DNA from: a virus
Length of the DNA stretch: 13,531 nt
Direction: 5' to 3' (one strand)
UHGV virus genome: UHGV-0241990
In this document: in pieces, positions 1 to 13,319 of the stretch
Layout of the letters: every line of letters begins with the position of its first letter
Numbering within the stretch: the first letter of the stretch is position 1
The notes under the pieces: generated by a model
What the model was told of the DNA's origin: nothing
Database searches by the model: none
Seen by the model: only the letters and a program-made list of their open reading frames with translations
Translations under genes and position numbers: made by a program

Positions 1-829
1 CCACCATATCGCCTAACGCATGCGGCTGGAACTGTGGGACCAGATAAGCAGTATTCTCTGGCAGACTATCCATTTGCACCACACGCAGAGCTAAGCCCGG
101 AATGCGGAAGGTCGGGAAGCCCGGCAGAATATCCTCAGGGAACATCAGACCTTTGTCGGTAATATTCTGATTGCCGAACAACAGCACTTTACGGAGCAGT
201 TCATCAGTCTGAATTGCAGCAAAGAGCTCAGCACGGCAGAACAGGGTGAAACCACGCAGAGCGCGAACAACACCACGCTGTTTAACCTTGCTCAGTGCAA
301 CCAGGTCCTGCAGCTGTTTAAGGATATCTTGAGCTAGATCCACTTCTGAAGTGGTTTGCTGTGCGCCCAGCAGTTCGCACACATTCAGTTCTTTACCCTT
401 GGTAAGGATAATTTTGTTCTCAAAGAGAGCAAGCTGGCGTGCTTCTTCATGGGTCGCGCGTAGTCCTTCACCCAGTTGAATAACACGACGAGCGGTTACA
501 GACTCTAAATTCTCTTCGGAATCTTTGCCCGGAACACGGATACCTTGCCAGTCAGAAGGATAAATAGCACTTGATGCGGCAGTGAATGCCATATCACCCG
601 TGCCCGTTTCACGCTCATCTGCGGTAATGGTAGCCATCTGTTCACCGTAGCGCGGATACTGACCGAAAGCGGTTTGTTTCACCTGGCGAACTTTGTCATA
701 TTCAAATTTAAAGGTATTGCACAGGGCTGTAGTGTTGAAGATATCCATTGCTGAAATAATCTGGTTATCCAGCGGGATGTCTTTAATCAGACCACACAGA
801 TCGCGAACTTCAAATTCTTTCTTAGCCAT
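1..829 (-). CDS. putative major capsid protein (N-terminal ~276 codons; gene runs past window start)
   Basis: Minus-strand frame opens at ATG 829..827 and runs to position 1 with no stop (frame hand-checked over several segments). GGAGG Shine-Dalgarno at 840..836, 6 nt upstream. Begins MAKKEFEVRDL. Lies directly downstream of the decoration-like gene (lambda D-E type order). Capsid call is from context and protein character, not confirmed homology. Confidence 0.5.
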   Translation of the reverse strand, partial: MAKKEFEVRDLCGLIKDIPLDNQIISAMDIFNTTALCNTFKFEYDKVRQVKQTAFGQYPRYGEQMATITADERETGTGDMAFTAASSAIYPSDWQGIRVPGKDSEENLESVTARRVIQLGEGLRATHEEARQLALFENKIILTKGKELNVCELLGAQQTTSEVDLAQDILKQLQDLVALSKVKQRGVVRALRGFTLFCRAELFAAIQTDELLRKVLLFGNQNITDKGLMFPEDILPGFPTFRIPGLALRVVQMDSLPENTAYLVPQFQPHALGDMV

Positions 830-840
830 CTTCAACCTCC

Positions 841-1176
841 TTATTGTGCAACACGCAAATCGCCATTGCTGGCAGCAATAACAGCGGCTAAGCCTTCTTT
901 ATCCACGTAGGCCGGATTGATGTAGCAACCTTTGTTCGCAACAACGATAAAAGCGTCACCAACCTCAGCACGTTCTACAACCAGCAGCGGAGTTTTACCG
1001 GTGTGCGTTGCTTTAACGAATGTTTCAACCTCGCCTTCCTCAGTCACCACAACAACAGTGCCAGCCGGAATCTCAGCCTTAACTTTGTTTTTAATTTCAA
1101 CGTCGCGAATAGAAAATTGCTCATCTGCGGCGTATGAAATGATGTGTCCGCGTGTGCGGATAGTCATATCTCTCAT
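841..1176 (-). CDS. head decoration protein-like (lambda gpD / DUF2190-like), 111 aa
   Basis: ORF from track. AGGTGA SD just upstream of ATG at 1176; stop 841-843 abuts the SD of the next gene. Beta-rich core (PLLVVERAEVGDAFIVVANKGCYINPAYV) resembles the gpD-type decoration fold pattern (recalled, not searched). Confidence 0.55.
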   Translation of the reverse strand: MRDMTIRTRGHIISYAADEQFSIRDVEIKNKVKAEIPAGTVVVVTEEGEVETFVKATHTGKTPLLVVERAEVGDAFIVVANKGCYINPAYVDKEGLAAVIAASNGDLRVAQ

Positions 1177-1229
1177 TTGATCACCTGCGATTTAAATTAA
1201 CTCCCCTCAAAGAGTTCCGGTATAACCTC

Positions 1230-1620
1230 TCAAACCACGACAGGCTCGGGCCGAAAAGTTATGCCGGAAATCTAAAGGGAAATTGATACAAGGAGAGGGA
1301 GATAGCCCCGCACCGTAGCCAAGCGGGGGCTATTCCACATGGGGAAACCGACAACAGTCGGATGATAGTTCACAGTATGGGTTACGGTTACTAGAGAGCA
1401 CTATCACGAAAGGCACTCCCCCGGATCAGTTCAGGCTGCGGTCACATCAGCGGGGAAATACCTTTCGGGATAGCTACCCACACAGAAAACCCGCAAAAGA
1501 AAACTGTGTGGATAACTAGCCCAATAGGAGAATTAATCGACCACTCAACGATGATCAGGGTAGTGTTATTTATAAGGCGGCACCGCTACCTGGTCGCCTT
1601 TACTTTGGAGGAAAATACGG
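1230..1620. other. structured, ORF-free, locally GC-enriched segment (candidate leader or ncRNA)
   Basis: No ORF of 60 aa or more on either strand. Hairpin 1302-1333 (ATAGCCCC / GGGGGCTAT arms) and hairpin 1478-1511 (8-bp stem CCACACAG / CTGTGTGG). A 9/9 DnaA-box-like TGTGGATAA at 1507-1515. Confidence 0.25.
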
Positions 1621-1943
1621 CAAATCACTTTCACCATTGATTTACGGTATATGTATATTATATCAGTATTCTCTCAAATTGTCAACCCCCTTATTATATA
1701 AATTCTAATAATTAGCGTAGTAACGGTATTTTCAGACCTCTATCAATCCCATCAATACGTCATCTCATCGCATCTATCATAACTTTTTCATTCGTGATAG
1801 ATATCTTTTGATCAATATCAATGTTTTCCGGGGATTTACCCGGTTATAGTTCGAATCAAGGAAGGGTAGCATTGATAGAGACACCCAAAGGGGTGACTGA
1901 AAGTCACCTGGCATAGCCAGTGAAAGCACCCAACCGAGCAAAC

Positions 1944-1961
1944 AAATCAACTTCTCGCAAA
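1944..1961 (+). repeat. conserved 18-nt element AAATCAACTTCTCGCAAA, copy 1
   Basis: Identical to 2463-2480; ends exactly 11 nt before the ATG at 1973. Confidence 0.7.
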
Positions 1962-1972
1962 AGGTGATAGTT

Positions 1973-2095
1973 ATGGGTATCAAGAACAGTGCCAGCGCAT
2001 GGCAAAAGGCCAGGTTTCATCACCCACACATTGTTAAGGCAATTGAGGTGGTTGGAGTTTTAGCCCTGATGTTAGCTCTGTGTGTGGAGGTGTGA
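1973..2095 (+). CDS. small hydrophobic peptide, 40 aa (MGIKNSASAWQKARFHHPHIVKAIEVVGVLALMLALCVEV)
   Basis: Not in ORF track (below its apparent length cutoff). ATG 1973 with AAGGTGA SD 5 nt upstream; stop TGA 2093-2095. Basic N-terminus and predicted C-terminal TM helix. Preceded by the conserved 18-nt element. Confidence 0.4.
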   Translation: MGIKNSASAWQKARFHHPHIVKAIEVVGVLALMLALCVEV

Positions 2096-2173
2096 GATGG
2101 GCAAAGGAGGCAAAGTATTTTTAATAGGTCTGGCAGTCTTAGATTTTGTATTAATCATCATTGAGCGGAGTTT

Positions 2174-2434
2174 ATGACGGGAACTAAAGATATTAAGAGA
2201 CTGAGGGAAGAGCTGATAGCTGAAATTAAAGCTAAGGCAAAGCAAATGGAGATAGCCGCACAAATGGATGTAGCGGAACAGATGTACAAGATGGTTGAGG
2301 AGGGAACGCCACGACAGGTCATCGCTAAAACCTTCGGTGTGGGGATCGCCACCGTGCACAGAAGGCTAAAAGCCTATGCCGACTACCACAATATCGAAAG
2401 AAAGGAGGATGGGAGATTTAAGAAGAATAAATAG
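2174..2434 (+). CDS. small HTH DNA-binding protein, 86 aa
   Basis: ORF from track; GGAG SD before ATG 2174. Helical N-terminus followed by an HTH-like segment TPRQVIAKTFGVGIATVHRRLK (resolvase / sigma region 4-type pattern). Confidence 0.75.
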   Translation: MTGTKDIKRLREELIAEIKAKAKQMEIAAQMDVAEQMYKMVEEGTPRQVIAKTFGVGIATVHRRLKAYADYHNIERKEDGRFKKNK

Positions 2435-2462
2435 TGTGAACAGTCCACCAGGTTATTAACTT

Positions 2463-2480
2463 AAATCAACTTCTCGCAAA
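2463..2480 (+). repeat. conserved 18-nt element AAATCAACTTCTCGCAAA, copy 2
   Basis: Identical to 1944-1961; ends exactly 11 nt before the ATG at 2492; followed by GGGG SD-like bases. Confidence 0.7.
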
Positions 2481-2491
2481 GGGGTACCACT

Positions 2492-3202
2492 ATGTTTAAG
2501 GGAATTATTGTTACACTATTAGCTTGCATTGTATTTGGTCCATGGGTGTTAGTAATTGCTTTGCCTCTATTACTAGTGATGAGTGTAGGGAAAGATATTA
2601 AAAAGCTGCATGCACAATATAAAGAGCACCCTGGAGCAGTCATAACAAGTCTGGTTATAGTCGCGGGGCTTATTGGCTGGGCCTACTTCTCTCTTCCCAC
2701 AGGAAATACAGCTGCAAATGTGGAAGAGGTGAACTCACAGCATGAAGAAGTGGTTAACGTCTCCGATCTTACATGGGAGGACAGGGTAAAAGCATATAAA
2801 TATATTTATGGTGTGCTAGATTGCGATCTCTCTAAAGATATAGGATGCACAGATAAATACCAGATTCACGCCTGGCTGTGGAATCATGCAGAAAAAGGTG
2901 CTTGCAACCAGATTAAAGTGGCGGTTAACAGTGGGGCACCTACTGGGAAAAATAAAGATGTTCTGACGGTATGGTGCAAGGATGTAAAAGGCAATGATCG
3001 TTGGCTACAGATGCGCCACATGGACGGTGTAAGCATAGAAACTACACGAACGGCTCGATGGTATAACGGTGAACTCGTTCACGAAGCATGGCAGAATAAC
3101 GCCTGGATCACTGAGGGAACACTCCTGAATGTTGATATGGAAGCATTGAAGATGCTTAATGAGATGTACGGTGAAGCCGTAGAAACCTCTCCTATGAAAT
3201 AA
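2492..3202 (+). CDS. membrane-anchored protein, 236 aa (two N-terminal TM helices plus soluble Cys-containing domain)
   Basis: ORF from track. Hydrophobic stretches IIVTLLACIVFGPWVLVIALPLLLV and ITSLVIVAGLIGWAYF, then a ~170-aa hydrophilic domain with several Cys. Followed immediately by a strong terminator. Confidence 0.85.
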   Translation: MFKGIIVTLLACIVFGPWVLVIALPLLLVMSVGKDIKKLHAQYKEHPGAVITSLVIVAGLIGWAYFSLPTGNTAANVEEVNSQHEEVVNVSDLTWEDRVKAYKYIYGVLDCDLSKDIGCTDKYQIHAWLWNHAEKGACNQIKVAVNSGAPTGKNKDVLTVWCKDVKGNDRWLQMRHMDGVSIETTRTARWYNGELVHEAWQNNAWITEGTLLNVDMEALKMLNEMYGEAVETSPMK

Positions 3203-3218
3203 CCACACCAACCCACCA

Positions 3219-3245
3219 GGGGGCCATCACGGCCCCTTTTTTATT
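3219..3245 (+). terminator. rho-independent terminator
   Basis: GGGGCC (3220-3225) / GGCCCC (3231-3236) stem, ATCAC loop, then TTTTTTATTT; 17 nt after the stop of the 236-aa gene. Confidence 0.85.
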
Positions 3246-3248
3246 TAT

Positions 3249-3303
3249 CCCCTATTTAACCCCTATTTAATGGGTATTTAATGCCTATTTATTGATTTAA
3301 TGG
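3249..3303. repeat. five tandem 11-bp units with TATTTAA core
   Basis: cccctatttaa (3249), cccctatttaa (3260), tgggtatttaa (3271), tgcctatttat (3282), tgatttaatgg (3293). Period is one helical turn. Confidence 0.6.
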
Positions 3304-3783
3304 TTTTGGGCATTGTTGACAGTGTAAGAGAGAGGATGTAACCCTTTTTTGCAATACTAATAAAATCAATAGCTTAGCTCAATTGGCCTTTTCTCTATTT
3401 TTGTCAAATTTAACATACCCTCAAAAACTGCAAAATCTGGCTGCAAGATTATCTGCAGCTGGATTTCTTACACCTCAATTTGTAGTATCACCCTGACTAG
3501 TTTGTGCATAAAATGAACAGTTTTTAACATTTCCTATTCACCTGGTAACCACACAAAAAGCTAAAAACGAGGCACAGATAATCTTAGAGGCCTGTTTTCT
3601 TGTTATCACTCTGGGAACGTCGTAGAAGTGATTTTGATGAAAGATGACCTACCCTATTACACCCCCATTTTTTGTTATCACAATTGCATCCTGTGCGGTG
3701 TATGGCTGTGTGCTGAAAGCGGTCTTGGGTGTGGGTGTCAGAAATATCCATTAGCGGTATTAATACCCGTCAGATGTTCGTCT

Positions 3784-3820
3784 GAGGTGCCAGGCAGGCG
3801 CTCCCCCACCTCCCTTTTTT
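3784..3820 (+). terminator. orphan terminator-like hairpin plus T-run in non-coding DNA
   Basis: GAGGTG (3784-3789) pairs CACCTC (3807-3812) with GC-rich inner pairing, followed by CC TTTTTT (3815-3820). No annotated gene upstream on this strand. Confidence 0.4.
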
Positions 3821-4368
3821 CTTCTAACAATTCTCAAATATCACACCACTGCCGACCACGTTGCTATTATGTTAATTCTTAAGCTTTGCTGTATGTTGTG
3901 CACATTATTTATTCAGGTGGCTGTACGTAAATTCTGTGCCCACTGATCATGATTTTTAAATCAGATTTTGTAGTGCGCTTTATTAGTGTAGATAAGATCT
4001 ATTATGTTAAATGCAATTTTCCCAACCCTTCAAATCAATGACTTACATGTAAGCATGCACTAACACCCCACACAGCACATTAGACGTATAGATGGCTATA
4101 TCCCACATTTTTGATTGTTTTGTAGTCATTCCCCTGATCATTTAACCAGTATAGTTTGTTCTCTGTAGACCACAAAACCGGAATTTACATCTGATTAACA
4201 TAATCTGTTAGCATGATCACCATTACCCACACAACAATAACCCCATGCAAGCCTCTTCAGGCAATTTATCGGCGTGTTGGTGTGAACAGTCTTTCATGTT
4301 CTTTATGTATTCATTGTCCTGTGTGAGGGAAGGATGGACTGCCCCAGGGGCCATAGTTATGACACCCG

Positions 4369-4404
4369 GTCAACATAACTGTTGATAAAATCAACGGGTG
4401 TTGA
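4369..4404. promoter_or_regulatory. pair of palindromic operator-like sites TCAACA-N4-TGTTGA and ATCAAC-N4-GTTGAT
   Basis: 4369-4384 TCAACATAACTGTTGA and 4389-4404 ATCAACGGGTGTTGAT share half-site TCAAC / GTTGA; centres 20 bp apart. CCCCAGGGG palindrome at 4341-4349 just upstream. Confidence 0.45.
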
Positions 4405-4525
4405 TCTGCATATTTCCCACACATGAGAGAAAATCAAAGCAAAGAGAGAGGAGAGAGGTTTGCTAGTCAAAATAGGTCAATTGACGGCTAATACAGAGTA
4501 AAAAATCAGATGCAATCACTCCCCC

Positions 4526-4795
4526 ACCTGTTGGGATTTCCTACAACCCCTTTCAGTCATACTCAGGCACCACACCCCGGTAAATATTACCGCACTAACC
4601 TGTAAAGAATTTTCACACCTGTGTGTTTATACAGTCATACTCTCCTGTTTTGCAGTCATTGCACCCATGATACACAGCCCCTAACCTGTCAAAATATTTT
4701 ACTACCCCACCAATAATACGGCCCATACCTGTAAAATATTTTTACTACTACCTGTCAAAATCTTTTACTACTACCTGTAAAAATATTTGACACTA
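4526..4795. repeat. iteron array: ACCTGT-containing ~23-bp repeats with near-palindromic core GT(C)AAAATATTTTAC
   Basis: Well-conserved copies starting near 4598, 4684, 4727, 4750, 4773 (spacings 86, 43, 23, 23 bp). Degenerate ACCTGT/CCTGT copies at 4526, 4617, 4644. Inverted repeat CGGTAAATATTACCG at 4578-4592. Confidence 0.65.
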
Positions 4796-4825
4796 ATAGA
4801 TAAAGTAATAGACCACACAATAGAT

Positions 4826-4859
4826 CCCCCCCTAACCCCCCAGGGGGGAATGGGGAGGG
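4826..4859. repeat. homopolymer C/G tract palindrome (C7-TAA-C6-A-G6-AAT-G4-A-G3)
   Basis: Read directly: ccccccctaaccccccaggggggaatggggaggg. CCCCCC A GGGGGG centred at 4842. Shorter CCCCAGGGG relative at 4341-4349. Confidence 0.5.
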
Positions 4860-5377
4860 ATCAGAGAGTGGGGAAGGTTTTCTAAGGGAAAAGCTTAACC
4901 CACAAATGAAAGCCTAAAGAGCATTAGCGACTCTTTAGGCAATATGTGTGTGGGGGTGACAATGTATTCCATACATGACACGTCACCCAATTGTGTGTGG
5001 GAGTGCCTACGGCACCTTAGCCCATGGCTAAGCCCTTCGGGTCTGTGTGTGGTCCGGCGAATGCGTCAGCATGAGGCCCACATGTGGACCGCTGCCGAAA
5101 GCTTGCCAGCGCCGGAAGGAGGCAGCAAAGAGTCTCCCGCGCGGGTGCACGCACACATATATAAAGGATACACTCATAAATCGAAAATAAGCCCCCTAAA
5201 TGGCCTTCTGGCTGCATTAACTAGTGTGAGTAGTGCAATTGCATTACCTGACCTCTAAATCGCGTTAGAATCGATTTTAGAGCGCTTAAGGCAAAAAGTG
5301 CCCTCCCTTGTGGGCTTGCTTGTGTCTGCTGTGCAGGCTATGGCACCTATAGCACACCTAAATGATAATAATTCTCA

Positions 5378-5406
5378 TTGACAATTGGTTGACAATATGA
5401 TAAGAT
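5378..5406 (+). promoter_or_regulatory. sigma70-like promoter candidate P1 with duplicated TTGACAAT
   Basis: TTGACA 5378-5383, 17-bp spacer, TAAGAT 5401-5406 (4/6). A second TTGACAAT at 5389-5396, 11 bp downstream of the first. Confidence 0.4.
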
Positions 5407-5441
5407 TATAAATAGGGGGAGAAACAGATCCGGAGGTCAAT

Positions 5442-5591
5442 GTGGAAATTACTGATGCAATAGCGATCATCAACCTGGCTGTACTGTGGTGCGGTGTTGC
5501 CTACATAGCCGGAGTAACTGCAATCGACAATCTTGAAGAAAAAATGATAGATAAATACAAAAAGATTGTTGACAATTTGACGAATGTCTGA
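5442..5591 (+). CDS. small GTG-initiated ORF, 49 aa, predicted TM helix (VEITDAIAIINLAVLWCGVAYIAGVTAIDNLEEKMIDKYKKIVDNLTNV)
   Basis: GGAGG at 5432-5436, 5 nt before GTG 5442; stop TGA 5589-5591. Not in track (short, non-ATG start). Protein-like composition, unlike the antisense track ORF 5406..5606. Confidence 0.3.
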   Translation: MEITDAIAIINLAVLWCGVAYIAGVTAIDNLEEKMIDKYKKIVDNLTNV

Positions 5592-5597
5592 TAAAAT
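5569..5597 (+). promoter_or_regulatory. near-consensus sigma70 promoter P2 for the plus-strand operon
   Basis: TTGACA 5569-5574, exactly 17-bp spacer, TAAAAT 5592-5597; predicted start ~5604, giving a ~120-nt leader before ATG 5725. Confidence 0.6.
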
Positions 5598-5724
5598 ATA
5601 AAGCATAGGGTAATTCTCATCATAGTGAATTTCCTTTAGTAGACTGGCGGGGGCTTGTCTTAAGTTCCCGTTTCTTTTTAATCATATATCGCACAGGTTA
5701 GTGAGCTAACAGGAGGCTTATACT

Positions 5725-5940
5725 ATGGCTAAAACCGGACCGATCAGCCAGCTGGTAAACTGGACTACTGACGAAATCGTCGAGAACGTACTTAAGGGGA
5801 ACTTCCGCAAAACTTCCGTTTATGCATTCATTCGTAAACATAAAGGAGAATATCCACACATTGAAGAAGCAATTTTAAAACTAAATTGCATTCGCCTTGA
5901 GCGGGAACTGGCTAAATACACCAATAACATTAATAAATAA
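5725..5940 (+). CDS. hypothetical small protein, 71 aa
   Basis: ORF from track; AGGAGG SD 5711-5716, 8 nt before ATG 5725; first gene downstream of P2. Confidence 0.7.
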   Translation: MAKTGPISQLVNWTTDEIVENVLKGNFRKTSVYAFIRKHKGEYPHIEEAILKLNCIRLERELAKYTNNINK

Positions 5941-5953
5941 TTATGGGGGAATT

Positions 5954-6820
5954 ATGGCAAGTAATTACGGGGAAAATTTTACTCCCCTTTTTAAACGTTT
6001 CATCAAATACATTTTTAAAAATCCGATTGCAAAAACTACAACCAATAAAGAAAGATTTCACTTAAACTTGTTGGAAATGACAATTTACGGTGAGATGGCA
6101 AGTTTTAATGCTGCAGGTTGTGAAATATTTATCTCTGAACAGAGATTAGCAGACGATTATGATGTTTCAAGACCGACAGTTATTAACTCGATTAAATCTC
6201 TAGAAAATGCCGGGCTTATTTCAATAGTTAAAAGTAAAGGCAAATCTAATCATTACAAACTGCTAATTACCCCTGATCAGCTTGGCAAGATGTGTGATGA
6301 GCAGGGTATTAAAACCTCCGACAGTGTGGGATCTAGTAAAGAGGCCCCCGATAATCAACAGGAAGCCCCAAAACAACCCACACAGCAAGCTAAAAAGGCC
6401 GAGGTGGTGCAATTGCCTACCCAACCTAAGAACGAGCGCAGAGAGCGCTTTAGAGACGCTGGCAAACGTGAGAAAGATGAGCACGGTTATCCGATTCTGA
6501 CAAGTGATGAGATGAACGCCAAATACAAAGGGATTCAGGCAACATTTAAGGATCGGAAGAGCATTAAACTCTCTGAATTGCGAGATGCATTTTACGGGCC
6601 GGAGGTGATGGATAAAATTAAAGGCACCGTTGAGGGTAGAATCTGGAAAGAAGATGATTATTGGCATTTAACAGAACAGGCCCTTAAGGTGGCTCAACAT
6701 GTAGCTAAAAGAGGTAAAACAATTATCATCGATTATATTAGTCATGGCTATGATGCCCCGAAAGAAAGATTGTGGAACAACTGCAAGCTTGTAAAAGGCG
6801 AATTAACCATTACAAAATAA
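5954..6820 (+). CDS. winged-HTH DNA-binding protein, candidate replication initiator or iteron-binding regulator, 288 aa
   Basis: Track ORF 5897..6820; start moved to in-frame ATG 5954 (GGGGGA upstream, avoids 44-nt overlap with previous gene). HTH segment ISEQRLADDYDVSRPTVINSIKSLENAGLISIVK, a Q/P/K/E-rich linker, then a distinct C-terminal domain. Lies ~1.2 kb downstream of the iteron array. Confidence 0.8.
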   Translation: MASNYGENFTPLFKRFIKYIFKNPIAKTTTNKERFHLNLLEMTIYGEMASFNAAGCEIFISEQRLADDYDVSRPTVINSIKSLENAGLISIVKSKGKSNHYKLLITPDQLGKMCDEQGIKTSDSVGSSKEAPDNQQEAPKQPTQQAKKAEVVQLPTQPKNERRERFRDAGKREKDEHGYPILTSDEMNAKYKGIQATFKDRKSIKLSELRDAFYGPEVMDKIKGTVEGRIWKEDDYWHLTEQALKVAQHVAKRGKTIIIDYISHGYDAPKERLWNNCKLVKGELTITK

Positions 6821-6859
6821 ACATTCTTATTTTTTACAGTATTCTAAAGGAAATTTAAA

Positions 6860-7006
6860 ATGTATGGCGATCTTGATTATTACCTGGAAAAGGAAAAATA
6901 TTTTGAAGATGAACTATCACAACATTTTTCATATTGGGAAGAATATTGTGGTTGGTTAGCTGAAGATCCAGCAGATGAAGAAAATGATTCTGACATCCCT
7001 TATTAA
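6860..7006 (+). CDS. tiny acidic protein, 48 aa (MYGDLDYYLEKEKYFEDELSQHFSYWEEYCGWLAEDPADEENDSDIPY)
   Basis: Not in track (short). AAGGA SD 8 nt before ATG 6860; stop TAA 7004-7006. Fills the otherwise empty gap between flanking genes. Strongly acidic with aromatic residues. Confidence 0.45.
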   Translation: MYGDLDYYLEKEKYFEDELSQHFSYWEEYCGWLAEDPADEENDSDIPY

Positions 7007-7104
7007 TTAATATCCCCTGTTATCCCCAAACAAACTAAATAAACAAACTAAGCACTAGAACTAGATTGATTGCCCTGATCTTTTAAACGTTCGGAGAATT
7101 AATC

Positions 7105-7593
7105 ATGTTCAAATCTGATCTTTCTGATTCCCAATTTGAAAAACTGGTAGCACTGCAGAAATATCTCCCCAGTGATGATCAACCAACACGACAGGCTAAA
7201 CACTTATTAGTCGAGGGCTTTACCCCTGAATTCGTGGCGGAATATACAGGCGTTAAACTTGAGAAAGTCCAAAAACTATATAATGAGTCCTGGAATCCAC
7301 GGTGTCGAGTTCCCCTCAGTGTCTACAACGAAATAGATAGAGATAGAAATGTCTTCGAAGATCGCCGCCGCAAATCTCTTTTAATGTGGAATTGTGGGAT
7401 GAATATTGAAGAGATAGCAAAAGAATTAAAAGTAACCTGCTTTCATATCTGGGGCTTGTTGAGTGAAATCCTGCCACGTAAGGAGCTTAATCAACGTTTG
7501 CCTAAGCCCGGTAGTCGTGCTTATCGCGAATTTATATTCATCTACCGCCGCCATAGAAATAAAGTCCAGAAAGCAATGGCCCAGAAAGCCTAA
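7105..7593 (+). CDS. putative DNA-binding protein with two sigma region 4-like HTH segments, 162 aa
   Basis: ORF from track; GGAG SD 8 nt before ATG 7105. HTH-like segments FTPEFVAEYTGVKLEKVQKL and MNIEEIAKELKVTCFHIWGLLSEIL; basic C-terminus. Confidence 0.8.
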   Translation: MFKSDLSDSQFEKLVALQKYLPSDDQPTRQAKHLLVEGFTPEFVAEYTGVKLEKVQKLYNESWNPRCRVPLSVYNEIDRDRNVFEDRRRKSLLMWNCGMNIEEIAKELKVTCFHIWGLLSEILPRKELNQRLPKPGSRAYREFIFIYRRHRNKVQKAMAQKA

Positions 7594-7666
7594 GTTTTAT
7601 CTCTTCGATTTATTTATTTTCGACTCACTTTAACCCCTTCCGGGGCTCTAATTTAAGGAATTCCAA

Positions 7667-8110
7667 ATGTCTCAAATCGCTAAATTATTATCCCAGGTAA
7701 TCAAAGCTTTCGACGCTGAAGATTCAAAAGTTCGCCAGGATCTTTTAGATGGCAAGTTTACCAACACCCTGGCATTTACCCGTGACAAAGAGCACTTCTT
7801 AAAACACAGACACCACGCTTTTGCTGAATGCAAGTCCGCTAATGGTGATGTTTTCTATGTCGATTTGGTGGTTATGGCATGTAGGCTGTGGATGATTCAG
7901 GACCTTATGCGCCAACACGGTGATGATCCTCTTATCAGCATGTGGAACAGCGCCCAGGATGGCTTTGTGATTGCTGCCTTATCCAAATCAATGATTGAGG
8001 CAGAAGGGGCAAGCCTTCAGAACATGGCAGATCTCTTTGAAATAAGCGTAGGAATGATGCAGACCATGCTCCAAGCTGTCAAACCTCTCAAACTGGTTAA
8101 TCTTGATTAA
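7667..8110 (+). CDS. hypothetical protein, 147 aa
   Basis: ORF from track; AAGGA SD 7 nt before ATG 7667. No recognisable motif. Confidence 0.8.
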   Translation: MSQIAKLLSQVIKAFDAEDSKVRQDLLDGKFTNTLAFTRDKEHFLKHRHHAFAECKSANGDVFYVDLVVMACRLWMIQDLMRQHGDDPLISMWNSAQDGFVIAALSKSMIEAEGASLQNMADLFEISVGMMQTMLQAVKPLKLVNLD

Positions 8111-8170
8111 GCTATTGATAAATAAGCACTCCCCATTTTTTGGGGGGTGCATCAATGAGAGGATATGCCT

Positions 8171-8554
8171 ATGAATATTGAAGAAATGATAGTTGAATTC
8201 GAAGAGGGTGATTTCCTGGAAGAAGGGGAGTTTAGTTACTCCCATTTTAAACAGGCGTTATTTAGCAGCGATGATAAACCACACGTTAGTGATCTTAACG
8301 ACGATGATTTATGTCGTTGGGTATGCACCCGCTTAAATGAAGATGGAAAGTATACAGGCCAAAACTTTCCAAATCTCTATTTCAAAGCACAAACATTTGA
8401 GGAAGGGCAAAGAGTGAAAAACCTGGTCGATAAAATGCTGTCAGCCGGATATTTGCATAAAGAATTATTAAATCCTAAAGCTGAAAGCAAGCGCCATTAT
8501 ATTTTTGTGTGGACTATTGGCGATAAGTGTCCACTAAGACGCAAAGGCAAATGA
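8171..8554 (+). CDS. hypothetical acidic protein, 127 aa (129 aa if started at 8165)
   Basis: Track ORF 8165..8554. GAGAGGA at 8157-8163 is only 1 nt from ATG 8165 but 7 nt from ATG 8171, so 8171 preferred. Stop TGA 8552-8554 lies 1 nt before the next ATG. Confidence 0.7.
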   Translation: MNIEEMIVEFEEGDFLEEGEFSYSHFKQALFSSDDKPHVSDLNDDDLCRWVCTRLNEDGKYTGQNFPNLYFKAQTFEEGQRVKNLVDKMLSAGYLHKELLNPKAESKRHYIFVWTIGDKCPLRRKGK

Positions 8555-8555
8555 T

Positions 8556-8792
8556 ATGAATATCTACGAAAAGATTTATCAAAAACTGGTTAAGGACTCC
8601 GAAGACACGCCCGAAGGGGTGACAATAGGTCACCTGCCAGAGGCAGCGAAAGAGGGGTCCACCATTATTAAAAGTAGCTCCCACACAGAAGGCCTCTCAA
8701 TCGAAGAGCTGGCGGAGAAATATAATATTGATAAAGAGGCCCTGAAAAGGGCTATTTCATTATCAAAATCTTTAAGACAGGGCGAGGTATAA
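8556..8792 (+). CDS. hypothetical protein, 78 aa
   Basis: ORF from track; tightly packed between neighbours (stop 8790-8792, next ATG 8794), consistent with translational coupling. Confidence 0.7.
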   Translation: MNIYEKIYQKLVKDSEDTPEGVTIGHLPEAAKEGSTIIKSSSHTEGLSIEELAEKYNIDKEALKRAISLSKSLRQGEV

Positions 8793-8793
8793 A

Positions 8794-10935
8794 ATGGCAA
8801 TGAAGGAAGTAGCCAGACTAACAAACGTTATTTACTGGGACTCTGATAAATCCTCCTGGCGAAAAGAAGTTAAACGGCTTGAGGATTATAAAAAATCCTG
8901 GAAGAAAGCTACCGACGATATAGCTAAAGCTGATTTTAAATCTAATCAGGCTGTGCTCAGAACACAAAGAACACGCGCTAAGGTGGAAGAGCAGATAGCC
9001 AGAGCTCAGAGGAAACAACAGGAAGCACAGAAGAAACAACGTGCTCAGGCTGTCAGCCGTCTGACCGGGGGCAACAATGCCGAACTTAACTCTATGCGCA
9101 AGTTCTACCAACAACAAGCCAGAGAAGCCGCCAGACAACAAAAACTGTTAGATCGTAGTGTTGGAGATGTTCAGCACAGAAAAGCACGTGTAGGGGCCAA
9201 CAGTGCACGAATCAGCAGCATGTTTGATGGATCCCTGGTTGCTCAGTTCCAAAGCAGAATCCAGAGAGTTAATGCTGATTATGCTAAAGGGGCTATTAAC
9301 CTGCAGACCTATAATCAGAAAATGGCCCGACTCAGAGCTGAAATGAAGATGGCCTCTAGAGATGCCACCACCTTTCAAAGCAAGCTAGATAAACTGGCAG
9401 CAGGTGCGAGCAAGGTGCATAACAATATCGGCAAGCTTAACAGTGCTTTAGGCAAGATAGCCATTGGCCTGACCGCTGCAGGATGGGGTATTCAGAGAGC
9501 TGTTAGTGGTGCTATGAGCGCTCAATCTGACCATAACTCAGCCTATTATGGTTTGCTTGCTCAGAACAAGGATGATAAAGCCAAGACTGACCAGCAGATG
9601 GCTTTTATCGAGAACACAGCCAACACCTACGGGATGGATCAGCGTGAGATGGAGGGTGGCTATATGCGTTTTGCTGCCGCTACTCCCACCATGAAGGAAT
9701 CTGATAAGCAGGCTCTTTTTGAGGCTATGGCGATTAAAGGCCGCTCAGTGGGTGCTACTGGCGAGCAACAGAACAGGGCGCTTGTTGCGGTCCAACAAAT
9801 GGCTTCAAAAGGAAGAGTAGCTGCGGAAGAGCTGCGTGGCCAGCTGTCAGAAGCCTTTGCAGGCTCACAACAGGATTTTCAACAGGCCGCTATTGATGCC
9901 GGAATCATCAAGAGTGCCCAGGAATTCGATAAAGCCATGGCAGATGGCAAAATCACCCTGGACAAGCTTCTTCCCTCTCTAGTGAAAATCTGGGGTGCTG
10001 CAAAAGAAACTGACGCTTTTGCTAAATCTATGCAACAGCCTGAAGTGGCACTGCAGAGAATGAGCAACCAGTTTTTTAAACTAAAGCAATCCTTTATGGG
10101 TGTTGTGGATCCTGCGGATGGCGTCATTACCCTGTCAGAATCCCTTATTTATATCTTTGAAGATTTATCCTCAATTTTCAGTAGCTCAGGTGAAGATGCC
10201 AAATCTCTCGGAGTTATGTTAGGCGAGGCAATGCATGAAATTTATTTTTGGGTCAACTGGGCTTGGTGGTGGACTAAGAAGATCGCCAAAGGCATTGGTG
10301 AGACGTTAGGCTGGACCGCACAGGATGCAGGCGAGAAGATTGGCCAGGTTGTGACCGCCCTGTTAGGCCTGAAGGTTGCAACAAGCATTGCTGGCATGGT
10401 TGGCGGCCTTATTTCCATGCTGTGGAAACTTAAAGCGGCGCTTAGTGCTTTAGTCGGTGTTGGTGATATCAGCACTGGAGGCACAGCAGGCAAAGGCAGA
10501 CCAGGTAGAGGCGGCTTTATCGGGAAAGCAGGCAGACTTGGAGGAAGATTTGCAGGTCCGGCAGGGATTGTTTTGACAGGATTTGACATTGCAAATAGCT
10601 TAGATTCCTACTGGCAGAATCCTGATAATCAGCGGCAGGAAGGAGCTAAACATCCTGAATGGTTAACCAGTATGGTTAATAGTGCTTCTAGCTTCCTTGG
10701 CCTTGATTATCGTCTGGACGCAGGACGCTACATTACCAGACCAACACCAACGGGTGGTATTGCTATTCAGAATGGAGGCTATCAGCCGACTCAAATCAGT
10801 GTAGTTCCGCAGGGTGAGATCTCCGGCAAGTGGGAGATAACCATTGATGAGGGGGGAATTGCCAGGGTGATCCAGAAGGAAGTCAGCGATCAGCTGGATT
10901 GGAAAGCCACACAGGAAGCTAATCAGCTTTTCTAA
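8794..10935 (+). CDS. tape-measure-like protein, 713 aa
   Basis: ORF from track. Long charged Q/K/R/E-rich helical N-terminus; central segment GEQQNRALVAVQQMASKGRVAAEELRGQLSEAFAG resembling the conserved tape-measure domain (recalled). Hydrophobic segments (VVTALLGLKVATSIAGMVGGLISMLW) and a Gly-rich stretch (GGTAGKGRPGRGGFIGKAGRLGGRFAG). Confidence 0.8.
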   Translation: MAMKEVARLTNVIYWDSDKSSWRKEVKRLEDYKKSWKKATDDIAKADFKSNQAVLRTQRTRAKVEEQIARAQRKQQEAQKKQRAQAVSRLTGGNNAELNSMRKFYQQQAREAARQQKLLDRSVGDVQHRKARVGANSARISSMFDGSLVAQFQSRIQRVNADYAKGAINLQTYNQKMARLRAEMKMASRDATTFQSKLDKLAAGASKVHNNIGKLNSALGKIAIGLTAAGWGIQRAVSGAMSAQSDHNSAYYGLLAQNKDDKAKTDQQMAFIENTANTYGMDQREMEGGYMRFAAATPTMKESDKQALFEAMAIKGRSVGATGEQQNRALVAVQQMASKGRVAAEELRGQLSEAFAGSQQDFQQAAIDAGIIKSAQEFDKAMADGKITLDKLLPSLVKIWGAAKETDAFAKSMQQPEVALQRMSNQFFKLKQSFMGVVDPADGVITLSESLIYIFEDLSSIFSSSGEDAKSLGVMLGEAMHEIYFWVNWAWWWTKKIAKGIGETLGWTAQDAGEKIGQVVTALLGLKVATSIAGMVGGLISMLWKLKAALSALVGVGDISTGGTAGKGRPGRGGFIGKAGRLGGRFAGPAGIVLTGFDIANSLDSYWQNPDNQRQEGAKHPEWLTSMVNSASSFLGLDYRLDAGRYITRPTPTGGIAIQNGGYQPTQISVVPQGEISGKWEITIDEGGIARVIQKEVSDQLDWKATQEANQLF

Positions 10936-10980
10936 CTGGTTGATAATAAAAGCCCCTCGGGATTTGTCATCCTTTGGGGC

Positions 10981-10992
10981 TCAACTTCTCGC
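10981..10992 (+). repeat. third copy of the core TCAACTTCTCGC
   Basis: Exact 12-nt match to the core of the 18-nt element at 1944 and 2463; lies just after a hairpin (10953-10981) downstream of the tape-measure-like gene. No start codon at the 11-nt distance. Confidence 0.5.
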
Positions 10993-11389
10993 CTGGCAAG
11001 TGTGATCATCTGCAGAGAGAAAGTCAACTCTCTTTCTGTTCACGTTTGATCATTCATACCGTTTGTTTTATATTCATCAGTGGAAACAGATCCCAGAGGT
11101 TAACGCGACCTCTAAGAGAAAATAAGCGTCTATGATCTGGAGTATCTTGTAGAGCACTGGGCTTGATGCGGCCTCACCCTAACCAAGGTGATAAACAGGC
11201 AAACGTTGGTGGTTCTGCTCTCTTACCCGGCAATAAGTGATAAGCCAAAACTAAGAGATGCCCACACGGTTTCACCGCACCGGAATATAAGCAGGTACCT
11301 GATAAAGCTGATCTACATGAAAACCTGAAAACCCCTAAATGATGCTAGTGTTTCTCCTTACCACCAACACGGCATCAAAAAGAGTTCTA

Positions 11390-11418
11390 TTGTCTGAATT
11401 CAGGATTTTGGCTATAAT
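11390..11418 (+). promoter_or_regulatory. sigma70-like promoter for the 49-aa ORF
   Basis: TTGTCT 11390-11395, 17-bp spacer, perfect TATAAT 11413-11418. Confidence 0.55.
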
Positions 11419-11452
11419 GTAGGCGTAGCAGGTCATAAGAAGGGGTGACACT

Positions 11453-11602
11453 ATGAAGAATGCCAATGCCATTAAGCGAAATAACCGCAAGATTCACGCT
11501 CGCAAGTTTCTCAAGACTGAAGAAGGCCGGAAATGGTTAGAAGAGAAGCAGAAGGAACGGCAGGAGATAAAGCTTGTGCGGGAATTATCCCAGTTTATCT
11601 AA
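11453..11602 (+). CDS. small basic protein, 49 aa (MKNANAIKRNNRKIHARKFLKTEEGRKWLEEKQKERQEIKLVRELSQFI)
   Basis: Not in track (short). AAGGGGTGA SD before ATG 11453; stop TAA 11600-11602. Own promoter and terminator. Confidence 0.6.
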   Translation: MKNANAIKRNNRKIHARKFLKTEEGRKWLEEKQKERQEIKLVRELSQFI

Positions 11603-11612
11603 TCTCAGAGAG

Positions 11613-11639
11613 AGGGGCTATCAGGCCCCTTTCTTGTCT
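11613..11639 (+). terminator. rho-independent terminator
   Basis: AGGGGC (11613-11618) / GCCCCT (11625-11630) stem, 6-nt loop, then TTCTTGTCT. Overlaps the stop codon of the convergent minus-strand gene. Confidence 0.6.
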
Positions 11640-12079
11640 ATGTCTACCCAGTATTTGATTGCACCGATCAAATCATCATAGTGGCGCATTGCATCATTGA
11701 AGCCTTTATAGCTTGCCCATTGTGGGGAAACCTTGTTATTGCTGAATTGCCCACTAATCAGGATAGTCTCCAAAATGTCGGCGTATCGCTTGCCAATTCG
11801 CTTTCTGACGGCCTCAGAGCTCCCACCCTTTACGATTGCATTAATCAGGGCTTTTGTGTGTCTCAGGCTCTCATAGAGCATTGCAGCGTGGGCAGACTCC
11901 ATAAATGAGCGCTTAGGCAAATCACCCCACCCCTCAGAGTGGATAGCCGCCAGTGTGGCGTAATTCAGGCCGCTATAGTGTTTCCCGTCATCCCAGCCAA
12001 CCGCTACACCTTCCATCTGTGAGAGCTCTTTATGCAGCTTATCCATCATGCGCTTGTCTATGGTGCACCGGACTTTCAT
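11621..12079 (-). CDS. putative virion morphogenesis protein, 152 aa
   Basis: ORF from track; start ATG overlaps the stop of the upstream gene (ATGA at 12076-12079). Segment VGWDDGKHYSGLNYATLAAIHSEGWGDLPKRSF is reminiscent of small head-tail or tail-completion proteins (weak, recalled). Confidence 0.75.
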   Translation of the reverse strand: MKVRCTIDKRMMDKLHKELSQMEGVAVGWDDGKHYSGLNYATLAAIHSEGWGDLPKRSFMESAHAAMLYESLRHTKALINAIVKGGSSEAVRKRIGKRYADILETILISGQFSNNKVSPQWASYKGFNDAMRHYDDLIGAIKYWVDIDKKGA

Positions 12080-12843
12080 TTTGTAGCATCCTTGGCAAAT
12101 TTGGCTTGCCTTTGCTGATCATAAATGTCTTTTGTGCTCATAGCCCCATCATTTTCATCGAGCAAAGTTTGTAAATTTTTAGGCTTAGCCGATGGGGTGT
12201 TGGTTGAGTTCCCGACGTTGCTATTCTTCTCAGCACTGTTAACAGCACCCTTTTGCTGTGTTTTATTCACCTTCTTACTGTTAGTGAAAACTCCGGCATT
12301 TTCGACCATCTTCACCTTGAAGGTGCGGAATTCTTCAAAAGTGCAATCAATAGTGATGCAGTCGCCAGAGGAAGAGCTACGCTTAACTTCACATTTCGTC
12401 ATGATGAAGTTCTCAAGAAGTCCGGCATCTTCACTAACCAGGCTAACCAGCTGGCGCTTGTCTCTCATTTCCATAAGTGCCTGAACAGCGGCAGCAGGGC
12501 GCATAGATTCACGGGGATTATCTGGATCAGTGTTCCGGTCGATGTAGTTCTCTTTCCGGATGATATGAGGGGAAGAGGTAACAATACCCGTAAAGCTGAC
12601 AGATTTATCTTTAATGACGGCATGGTCTGACATGGTGGTGCCATCCTCGACCGCATAGCTCGATTTCTCAACAGGGAACGAATAGCTGACATCAGAGATA
12701 GAGTCAAAGAAGATAGCCACATTATCGGTATAGTTGAAGCCATCCATTATATTTTTGTTTTGTGAATATCCCCCACACATAACAGTGAATGCAGGAGATC
12801 TCGACTCAGCTTGTTTTGCAGCTGTTAGAGCATCATTAGCCAT
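12076..12843 (-). CDS. hypothetical protein, likely structural, 255 aa (258 aa if started at 12852)
   Basis: Track ORF 12076..12852. GAGG SD is 1 nt from ATG 12852 but 10 nt from ATG 12843, so 12843 preferred. Beta-rich N-terminal part, low-complexity polar C-terminus. Confidence 0.75.
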   Translation of the reverse strand: MANDALTAAKQAESRSPAFTVMCGGYSQNKNIMDGFNYTDNVAIFFDSISDVSYSFPVEKSSYAVEDGTTMSDHAVIKDKSVSFTGIVTSSPHIIRKENYIDRNTDPDNPRESMRPAAAVQALMEMRDKRQLVSLVSEDAGLLENFIMTKCEVKRSSSSGDCITIDCTFEEFRTFKVKMVENAGVFTNSKKVNKTQQKGAVNSAEKNSNVGNSTNTPSAKPKNLQTLLDENDGAMSTKDIYDQQRQAKFAKDATK

Positions 12844-12948
12844 ATTGAACATGCCTCAAAAATGAATCTTTTCGTTGCCCTGCTTAAAATCTGCAGAAAA
12901 TACAGGGCAGTTATTCGTTAGAATCGCTTATAGCTCTTCCCGAGAGCG

Positions 12949-13209
12949 TTATTTTGCAAAACGATTATGGGCATTCAGGGCTTTTTTGCGGTCCTGTGCC
13001 TGTTTGCGTGCAATAAAATGTTCGAAAGTCTCGGCCCAGGTGCATTTATTATATTCACGGTATTTATGCATAGCCTGGCGGCTAACGTCATAGCAGGCGG
13101 CAAATGTGGAGATACGCAGGAATTCCGGCAGATCCTCGTCATCGATATGGATAATATCAAAAGGCACGTCGTCACGGTCGCCGTATAAAACAATTTTCAT
13201 AAAAGACAC
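12949..13209 (-). CDS. hypothetical small protein, 86 aa, possible HTH (AACYDVSRQAMHKY)
   Basis: ORF from track; GAGGTG SD 5 nt upstream of ATG 13209. Acidic N-terminus. Sits just downstream (minus sense) of a terminator. Confidence 0.7.
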   Translation of the reverse strand: MSFMKIVLYGDRDDVPFDIIHIDDEDLPEFLRISTFAACYDVSRQAMHKYREYNKCTWAETFEHFIARKQAQDRKKALNAHNRFAK

Positions 13210-13234
13210 CTCAAAAACTTAAGACGGGGATAAT

Positions 13235-13295
13235 AAAAAAGGGAAGAGGGAAAGACCTATCCCCGATCTCTCACCTCTTCCCTTTGCTTTTATTT
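13235..13295. terminator. bidirectional intrinsic terminator
   Basis: GGGAAGAGG (13241-13249) pairs CCTCTTCCC (13274-13282). Flanked by an A-run (13235-13240, read as T-run on the minus strand) and TTTGCTTTTATTT on the plus strand. Confidence 0.6.
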
Positions 13296-13319
13296 GGCCT
13301 TCGAAGAAGGACCTTATTT

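Follow-up and report, generated by a model that had tools for sequence, protein, structure and literature searches.

The four 19-bp repeats at positions 4684-4791 of the window, by which we mean the whole 13,531-nt stretch of DNA analysed here, are most likely the iterons of the vegetative (theta-type) replication origin of the element that carries them, a reading to which the sequence comparisons lend a probability of roughly 0.8. It is a known kind of element, namely an iteron origin with its cognate initiator in a lambda-like layout, newly described; its main interest resides in the specificity series that it forms with its relatives and in the undescribed capsid-bearing plasmid family to which it belongs, more than in the array itself. 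The window corresponds to essentially a whole replicon, since it matches end to end complete circular E. coli "plasmids" of 13.2-13.7 kb at 92-97% identity, and a whole circular plasmid of ~13.5 kb must carry an origin. The preliminary description had left an iteron origin, a partition centromere and a cooperative operator array standing side by side; on sequence grounds the iteron origin appears to fit best of the three, because the candidate binding protein matches phage replication-initiator families, because the array adjoins an AT-rich block and a palindrome as in ori-lambda, because no partition NTPase is encoded, and because there is no promoter in the array and no repeat-like operator at the promoters.

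The repeat array is real and stands far beyond chance. A search of the window for ACCTGTMAAAATATTTTAC (19 bp) with up to 3 mismatches returned copies starting at 4684, 4727, 4750 and 4773, all on the + strand, together with a fifth match that is the palindromic core in reverse reading; only 0.01 matches are expected against these 5, and 0 of 200 dinucleotide-preserving shuffles reached that number. The same search found no further cognate array in the window, 4684-4791 being the sole one. The 23-bp array has the top Tandem Repeats Finder score of the window (98), and 7 of the window's 9 ACCTGT hexamers fall within 4526-4778 on one strand. The cognate copies and the two elements next to them are the following:

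4684..4702, + strand: cognate iteron 1 (ACCTGTCAAAATATTTTAC), dyad centre 4695, 0 mismatches; the distal copy
4727..4745, + strand: cognate iteron 2, dyad centre 4738
4750..4768, + strand: cognate iteron 3, dyad centre 4761
4773..4791, + strand: cognate iteron 4, dyad centre 4784; adjoins the AT-rich block
4793..4826, no strand: AT-rich block starting CTAATAGATAAA, 34 bp, 71% AT; candidate DNA-unwinding element
4826..4859, no strand: conserved G/C palindrome CCCCCCCTAACCCCCCAGGGGGGAATGGGGAGGG, flanking the AT-rich block

At least five well-conserved repeats of about 23 bp had been counted previously; the four cognate copies bear this out, whereas the one at 4598 is weaker and belongs to a different class of site. 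The spacings had been given correctly, the cognate iterons starting 43, 23 and 23 bp apart with 86 bp back to 4598. The accompanying claim that the sites lie on one face of the DNA holds only approximately, because a 23-bp step at 10.5 bp per turn amounts to 2.19 turns and thus rotates the next site by about 69 degrees. Dyad symmetry is present, as had been noted, but in the form of the 15-mer GTnAAAnnnTTTnAC, which is centred at 4695, 4738, 4761 and 4784.

The start of the AT-rich block, CTAATAGATAAA, is conserved in all relatives and serves as the anchor for the distances given below; by our own count the block reaches ~83% AT in the relatives L004 and L008. Nowhere else in the window are an AT-rich block and a palindrome paired in conserved form, and this pair directly adjoins the array. 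The array lies inside a stretch of ~2.3 kb without annotated gene that is present in every relative, and the 1.16 kb that separate its end at 4791 from the start of the initiator gene at 5954 hold no annotated gene in most of them. DnaA boxes (TTATNCACA, at most 1 mismatch) are not enriched, with 21 found against 14.5 expected window-wide, and only one such match, at 4668 and with 1 mismatch, lies near the array. No IHF site was found at the array, the Rfam scan of the whole window returned nothing, no tRNAs were detected in it, and GC skew is uninformative on so small a replicon.

The putative partner of the array is encoded downstream of it:

5954..6820, + strand: candidate initiator gene, 288 aa from ATG, the same start as in the annotation of the relatives
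6152..6190, + strand: codons 67-79 (DDYDVSRPTVINS), for the turn and the first helical turns of the predicted recognition helix; iteron type follows from the class of this segment

This product is the only protein of the element that resembles a replication initiator. Over residues 56-108 it scores 26.0 bits with Pfam HTH_36 (PF13730), whose gathering cut-off is 25; among the PHROG families it hits phrog_270 'replication initiation protein' at 4.7e-12 and also several 'O-like' (1e-6 to 4e-7) and 'DnaD-like' ones, the similarity to initiators spanning mainly the winged-helix region; no matches to Pfam Phage_rep_O (E<0.1) or Rep_3 were found. An AlphaFold2 model built on 32 alleles (mean pLDDT 67.6) predicts that residues 39-103 fold as a winged-helix domain, of which 39-53, 62-68 and 73-85 are helical and 89-103 form the beta-hairpin of the wing. 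Residues 120-171 make up a linker predicted to be disordered (pLDDT below 50), and residues 172-288 a second, C-terminal folded domain. The variable stretch, residues 67-79, covers in this model the turn and the beginning of the putative recognition helix. When solved structures were searched by fold and by sequence, the matches listed were only generic dimeric winged-helix proteins (SmtB/ArsR, CodY, MarR, TubR), and no initiator structure (RepE, pi, RepA) is among the best 50 fold matches listed. In RefSeq the relatives are labelled as HTH, MarR or GntR regulators.

The full-length protein family is narrow: an exhaustive profile search of 1.84 billion proteins yielded ~4 representatives at 50% identity, the remaining matches covering the winged-helix region only. 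The nearest outgroups all carry HTH_36, several of them also DnaD_N, RepL or RP-C, and no relative of the initiator was found in the annotated phage collection. The C-terminal domain (6467-6817, residues 172-288) belongs to no recognised family; it occurs as three alleles of ~31-43% mutual identity that reassort freely with the DNA-binding domain, and these alleles may reflect different helicase, loader or helper partners. The ORFs downstream of the initiator gene (48, 162, 147, 129 and 78 aa) gave no significant family matches.

The pairing of this protein with the array emerges from a comparison of 24 related elements that carry the same initiator family, the loci having been drawn from annotated records, one metagenome scan and eight look-ups that sampled different helix/wing combinations. 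The backbones of these elements are more than 90% identical, whereas identity between their initiator alleles spans 99% to 42%. A search of relatives for the repeat unit, as had been suggested in the preliminary description, found the array at shared positions but with the site sequence swapped by type: in every type except F, four sites stand at -110, -66, -43 and -20 from the anchor CTAATAGATAAA, and in type F three sites occupy the shared positions while the first copy is displaced. The site sequences fall into seven types, which are listed here with the corresponding segment of the recognition helix:

Type A: ACCTGTMAAAATATTTTAC; helix segment SRPT(V/I)I(N/K)(S/A)I; the window and 6 others
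Type B: ACCTGTTGGAATTTCCCAC; helix segment RKDRGKIVSAI; L001, L004, L013
Type B2: ATATGCTGGAATTTCCCAC; helix segment RKDRGKIASAI; L011, L016
Type C: CCCCGGTAAATATTTCCGG; helix segment ATEKTVRSAI; L005, L026, L029
Type D: (C/T)ACTGAAGATTTCTCAC; helix segment VSDRKIIESI; L002, L024, L025
Type E: CCCCGGAAGATTTCTCCG; helix segment VSDRKIRDSI; L003, L014, L015
Type F: CNGGTAAAAATTACCG; helix segment TPKTVRTAI; L008, L010, L022

The sample comprises 13 distinct allele combinations, all from one closely related family, and two helix variants were put into a single class only afterwards. In it the iteron type has an entropy of 2.66 bits, which falls to 0 bits once the class of the recognition helix is given; it remains at 1.50 bits given the wing and at 1.87 bits given the C-terminal allele. 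The initiators are mosaics in which the wing, present in four forms, and the C-terminal domain, present in three alleles, both reassort against the helix. The DNA between array and gene (1.0-1.7 kb) is reshuffled as well, with 15-mer Jaccard indices of 0.04-0.22 for pairs of the same type and of up to 0.52 for pairs of different types. The helix thus recombines away from a wing ~40 bp distant and never from an array more than 1.1 kb off, which argues for selection on a functional pairing and not for linkage. Types D and E are particularly informative: between them the two-residue helix change from IE to RD coincides with a symmetric change from T:A to G:C in both half-sites (cTGAgAA..TTCTCAc versus cGGAgAA..TTCTCCg). 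Types A, B, B2 and E place the dyad axis in an identical register. No covariation with the iteron type was found in the 86-aa HTH_7 protein, the 162-aa and 78-aa proteins or the 71-aa upstream ORF, all four of which are either near-identical across types or vary independently of them. That the wing reads the flanks of the iterons is refuted by wing swaps that keep the iteron type (L013 versus L001; L014 versus L003). The earlier proposal that the 5954-6820 protein is the binder thereby gains strong support, as far as sequence comparison can lend it, in that helix class fully determines repeat type. The natural specificity series is unusually clean, and its seven iteron types and seven helix classes at fixed geometry provide a ready-made system for the study of winged-helix DNA recognition as well as of the way in which incompatibility groups arise by module exchange.

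Upstream of the cognate array the window also contains three single sites of other specificities:

4526..4544, + strand: foreign type-B single site (ACCTGTTGGGATTTCCTAC), type-B score 23 against 23.1-26.9 in true copies
4575..4593, + strand: foreign type-C single site (CCCCGGTAAATATTACCGC), score 18 against 15.6-19.0 in true copies
4598..4616, + strand: 'H' single site (ACCTGTAAAGAATTTTCAC), iteron-like, its cognate initiator lying outside the sample

In a position-weight scan the copy at 4526, previously taken for a degenerate one, turned out to be a full-strength type-B site, and those at 4617 and 4644, described in the same terms, both score as nothing; the type-C site at 4575-4593, which is of the cognate type of L005, L026 and L029, was absent from the earlier list of copies. 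The 4598 copy is assigned to a class of its own because the same 'H' block recurs in relatives whose own arrays belong to another type. The type-B-like site at 4526..4544 is present in all relatives and forms the left border of a hypervariable iteron zone, and single foreign sites occur in all relatives between this universal site and the array of their own, recurring at spacings of 23 and 43 bp, i.e. the quanta of a complete array. The simplest and best reading would be that the foreign sites at 4526, 4575 and 4598 are leftovers of earlier arrays after recombinational exchange of origin/initiator specificity. That they are instead maintained as decoys or handcuffing partners, titrating initiators that belong to rival siblings or to a helper, is unlikely, although ectopic origin copies that arrest lambda and block the cognate replicon offer a precedent (PMC4488673); if it were true, it would amount to a built-in, multi-specificity system of incompatibility or exclusion among competing plasmid-satellites that share a cell.

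A further observation concerns the relative L006 (NZ_CP020521.1), in which at 10592-11503 precisely the initiator gene has been replaced by that of an unrelated MarR-like winged-helix protein. The replacement protein weakly matches initiator PHROGs and comes with its own three repeats (ATCAACATATCAATnTGATATAyTTA), situated shortly downstream of the G/C palindrome; a replication module that can be exchanged would be expected to be swapped in this way, gene and repeats together. Yet an orphan type-C array survives intact in L006 without a cognate initiator gene; an array can therefore persist without a partner encoded in cis, which counts against a strict one-to-one dependence.

The element that carries the array looks like an undescribed plasmid-type phage satellite, a class of which a 2025 review knew only one example (PMC12282955). 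Its relatives are annotated with major capsid, tape measure, baseplate and HTH proteins, and family scans of the window confirm capsid, tape measure and tail-completion proteins, the structural genes being placed as follows:

13314..829, wrapping the window ends, - strand: major capsid protein
8794-10935: tape measure protein
11621-12079, - strand: tail-completion protein
12076-12852, - strand: baseplate or tail-fibre-like protein

Family scans identified no integrase, terminase, portal or partition NTPase among the ORFs of the element, and no helicase, helicase loader or primase genes were found in it. A database search returned 103 initiator clusters, nearly all of which lie on E. coli, Shigella or E. 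albertii contigs 13.3-14.4 kb long. Searches of phage databases with the element DNA, the capsid protein and the initiator gave no match, nor did a scan of viral contigs with the conserved flank, and we found nothing specific in the literature on the element family, the iteron sequences or the plasmid names. A probable replication module is identified here for a widespread and apparently undescribed family of ~13-14 kb elements that bear capsid and tail genes in E. coli, Shigella and E. albertii. Among the relatives, L029 (NZ_CP043822.1), a RefSeq 'plasmid' of 39,610 bp, consists of three head-to-tail copies of one 13.5 kb element, one of them degraded, and lists the same set of protein accessions three times; the trimer may be an assembly artefact or a real multimer, and its size of ~40 kb is near that of a phage genome. 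As a trimer of one element it was rejected as evidence on the co-residence of different types.

The surrounding non-coding DNA holds further conserved features. Two similar promoters stand upstream of the initiator operon:

5378-5406 and 5569-5597, + strand: strong sigma-70-like promoters, 10-11 of 12 consensus positions, extended -10 TG

Both share TTGACAAT..., bracket a conserved 49-aa ORF (5442-5591) and probably drive the small ORFs together with the initiator gene; neither an iteron-like site nor an inverted half-iteron operator was found at them. Promoter-like matches in the region number 8 against 7.2 expected in shuffles, and a weak one lies at 4612-4641. Directly after a terminator at 3218-3247, an 11-bp unit (CCTATTTAA-like) is repeated ~4.5 times at 3242-3291; this block is conserved throughout the relatives, even in the divergent L022, and the period of one helical turn suggests bent DNA or a protein-binding array. 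Some 95 bp downstream of the origin block, at 4943-5150, each element has 2-5 cassettes, at homologous positions in all relatives, in which a TGTG(TG)GG(G) head precedes 40-50 nt of short hairpins. The repertoire of these hairpins is limited, and their stems vary and still pair (GTGCC/GGCAC, GTGCT/AGCAC, GTCAC/GTGAC, TCCAC/GTGGA), with double changes at 3 of 7 pairs in an automatic alignment of the middle hairpin only; the number and order of the cassettes are independent of the iteron type, and Rfam gave no match. These cassettes might act as structured RNAs or as signals for single-strand priming. The window contains 19 copies of the heptamer TGTGTGG against 1.4 expected, with 0 of 200 shuffles reaching 19, in coding and non-coding DNA alike (e.g. 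4813-4819 on the - strand; 4947, 4994 and 5046 on the + strand), and one copy falls within the AT-rich block beside the iterons.

Taken as an origin, the locus would be expected to work as follows. Dimers of the 288-aa initiator would bind every iteron, itself dyad-symmetric, by way of the recognition helix in the N-terminal winged-helix domain, and the four closely spaced complexes would assemble into a nucleoprotein structure resembling the lambda 'O-some'. This structure would destabilise the AT-rich block at 4793-4826, which is bounded by the G/C palindrome, and the C-terminal domain on its flexible linker would then recruit a helicase or loader of the host or of a helper phage.

Several observations tell against this reading, namely the lack of any helicase, loader or primase gene among the ORFs scanned, the DnaA boxes that are not enriched, the missing IHF site at the array, the shortness of the AT-rich block (34 bp) with its modest 71% AT, and the orphan array of L006. 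Other functions have therefore to be weighed. The array might be no more than a locus of copy-number control and incompatibility, acting by handcuffing or titration in the manner of P1 incA, with initiation elsewhere in the 2.3 kb non-coding region: the covariation speaks for binding and not for initiation, the region contains other conserved repeats such as the 11-bp units at 3242-3291, an orphan array has been kept in L006, and ectopic origin copies are able to block a cognate replicon (PMC4488673). We consider this improbable, given that the window has no other cognate array and that this one adjoins the sole conserved pairing of AT-rich block and palindrome, as in ori-lambda. The two readings are, moreover, not truly exclusive. 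In iteron replicons, the iterons of the origin usually serve both initiation and copy control. A cooperative operator, at which the winged-helix protein would regulate a nearby promoter, e.g. in the hairpin-cassette region at 4943-5150 or in the initiator operon, is more improbable still. It would agree with the best solved-structure neighbours, which are repressors of the ArsR/SmtB, MarR and CodY type, with the regulator labels that RefSeq gives to the relatives and with the weak promoter-like match at 4612-4641; yet the strong promoters lie 600-800 bp downstream of the array, are conserved across iteron types and have no iteron-like site, and promoter-like matches are no commoner than in shuffles. 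Besides, the length of 288 aa, the long linker predicted to be disordered and a second folded domain that comes in three reassorting alleles are atypical of a simple repressor, and the plasmid would be left without any recognisable initiator.

We regard as very improbable a partition centromere of the parC or tubC kind with a winged-helix centromere-binding protein, even though TubR, itself a winged-helix centromere binder, is among the structural neighbours and short tandem arrays are common in centromeres, for no NTPase of the ParA, ParM or TubZ type was found among the element's ORFs, the protein gene lies 1.16 kb from the array and not in an adjoining par operon, and the adjoining AT-rich block and palindrome are not features of centromeres. 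The presence of capsid and tail genes without a terminase implies that a foreign packaging machine must recognise the element somewhere, and the repeats might accordingly be a packaging array (pac or cos) for the terminase of a helper phage; this is scarcely credible in view of the fact that the site sequence covaries with the element's own protein and differs between elements whose structural genes are nearly identical, whereas a site specified by a helper would behave the other way round. An iteron origin remains the reading that we prefer.

Such an origin can be compared with three known systems. It resembles those of the Rep_3 iteron plasmids (pSC101 RepA, F RepE, R6K pi, P1 RepA) in its tandem sites of ~19-23 bp beside an AT-rich region, in a plasmid-encoded initiator of apparently matching specificity and in the consequences to be expected for copy control and incompatibility. 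It differs from them in that the initiator has one winged-helix domain in the model where Rep_3 initiators have two, in that the dyad symmetry of the sites implies a dimer per site and not a monomer, and in that the window has no cluster of DnaA boxes and no inverted half-iteron operator at the rep promoters. With the HTH_36 (PF13730) initiators of phages and plasmids, which are allied to DnaD_N and RepL, it shares a protein that scores above the family threshold and outgroups that all carry HTH_36; unlike them, its full-length family is narrow and absent from the phage collection, and its C-terminal domain has no recognised family.

The closest likeness in layout is to ori-lambda, which we read directly from the phage lambda sequence that was fetched for this purpose. 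There, four dyad iterons of 18 bp, with start-to-start distances of 20, 24 and 23 bp, are followed by a purine-rich block of 78% AT and then by an inverted repeat; the window presents, in the same order, four 19-bp direct dyad iterons (43, 23 and 23 bp apart), an AT-rich block and a palindrome. The literature presents ori-lambda as a combination of iterons with an AT-rich tract (PMC7466680), and the lambda O protein as having a DNA-binding domain at its N-terminus and a P-binding domain at its C-terminus, joined by a flexible linker, with each iteron occupied by one dimer (PMC6022878). The window initiator is predicted by the model to have the same arrangement of N-terminal DNA-binding domain, linker and C-terminal domain, and it matches PHROG 'O-like' families. 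On the other hand, the array stands in non-coding DNA 1.16 kb upstream of its gene where the lambda origin lies within the initiator gene, the first iteron is 43 bp from the second, there is no P-like helicase-loader gene by the initiator, and the replicon is a plasmid-like element of 13.5 kb and not a lambdoid phage. Nor is the initiator a detectable homologue of lambda O: hhalign against the family profile gives a probability of 0.1%, and the window protein does not match Pfam Phage_rep_O (PF04492), the family to which lambda O is assigned at 5.7e-36, so that direct homology is rejected on both counts. In lambdoid phages, too, origin/initiator specificities differ from one another, and they reside in the N-terminal part of O. 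The system described here would work like ori-lambda and O but stands outside that family.
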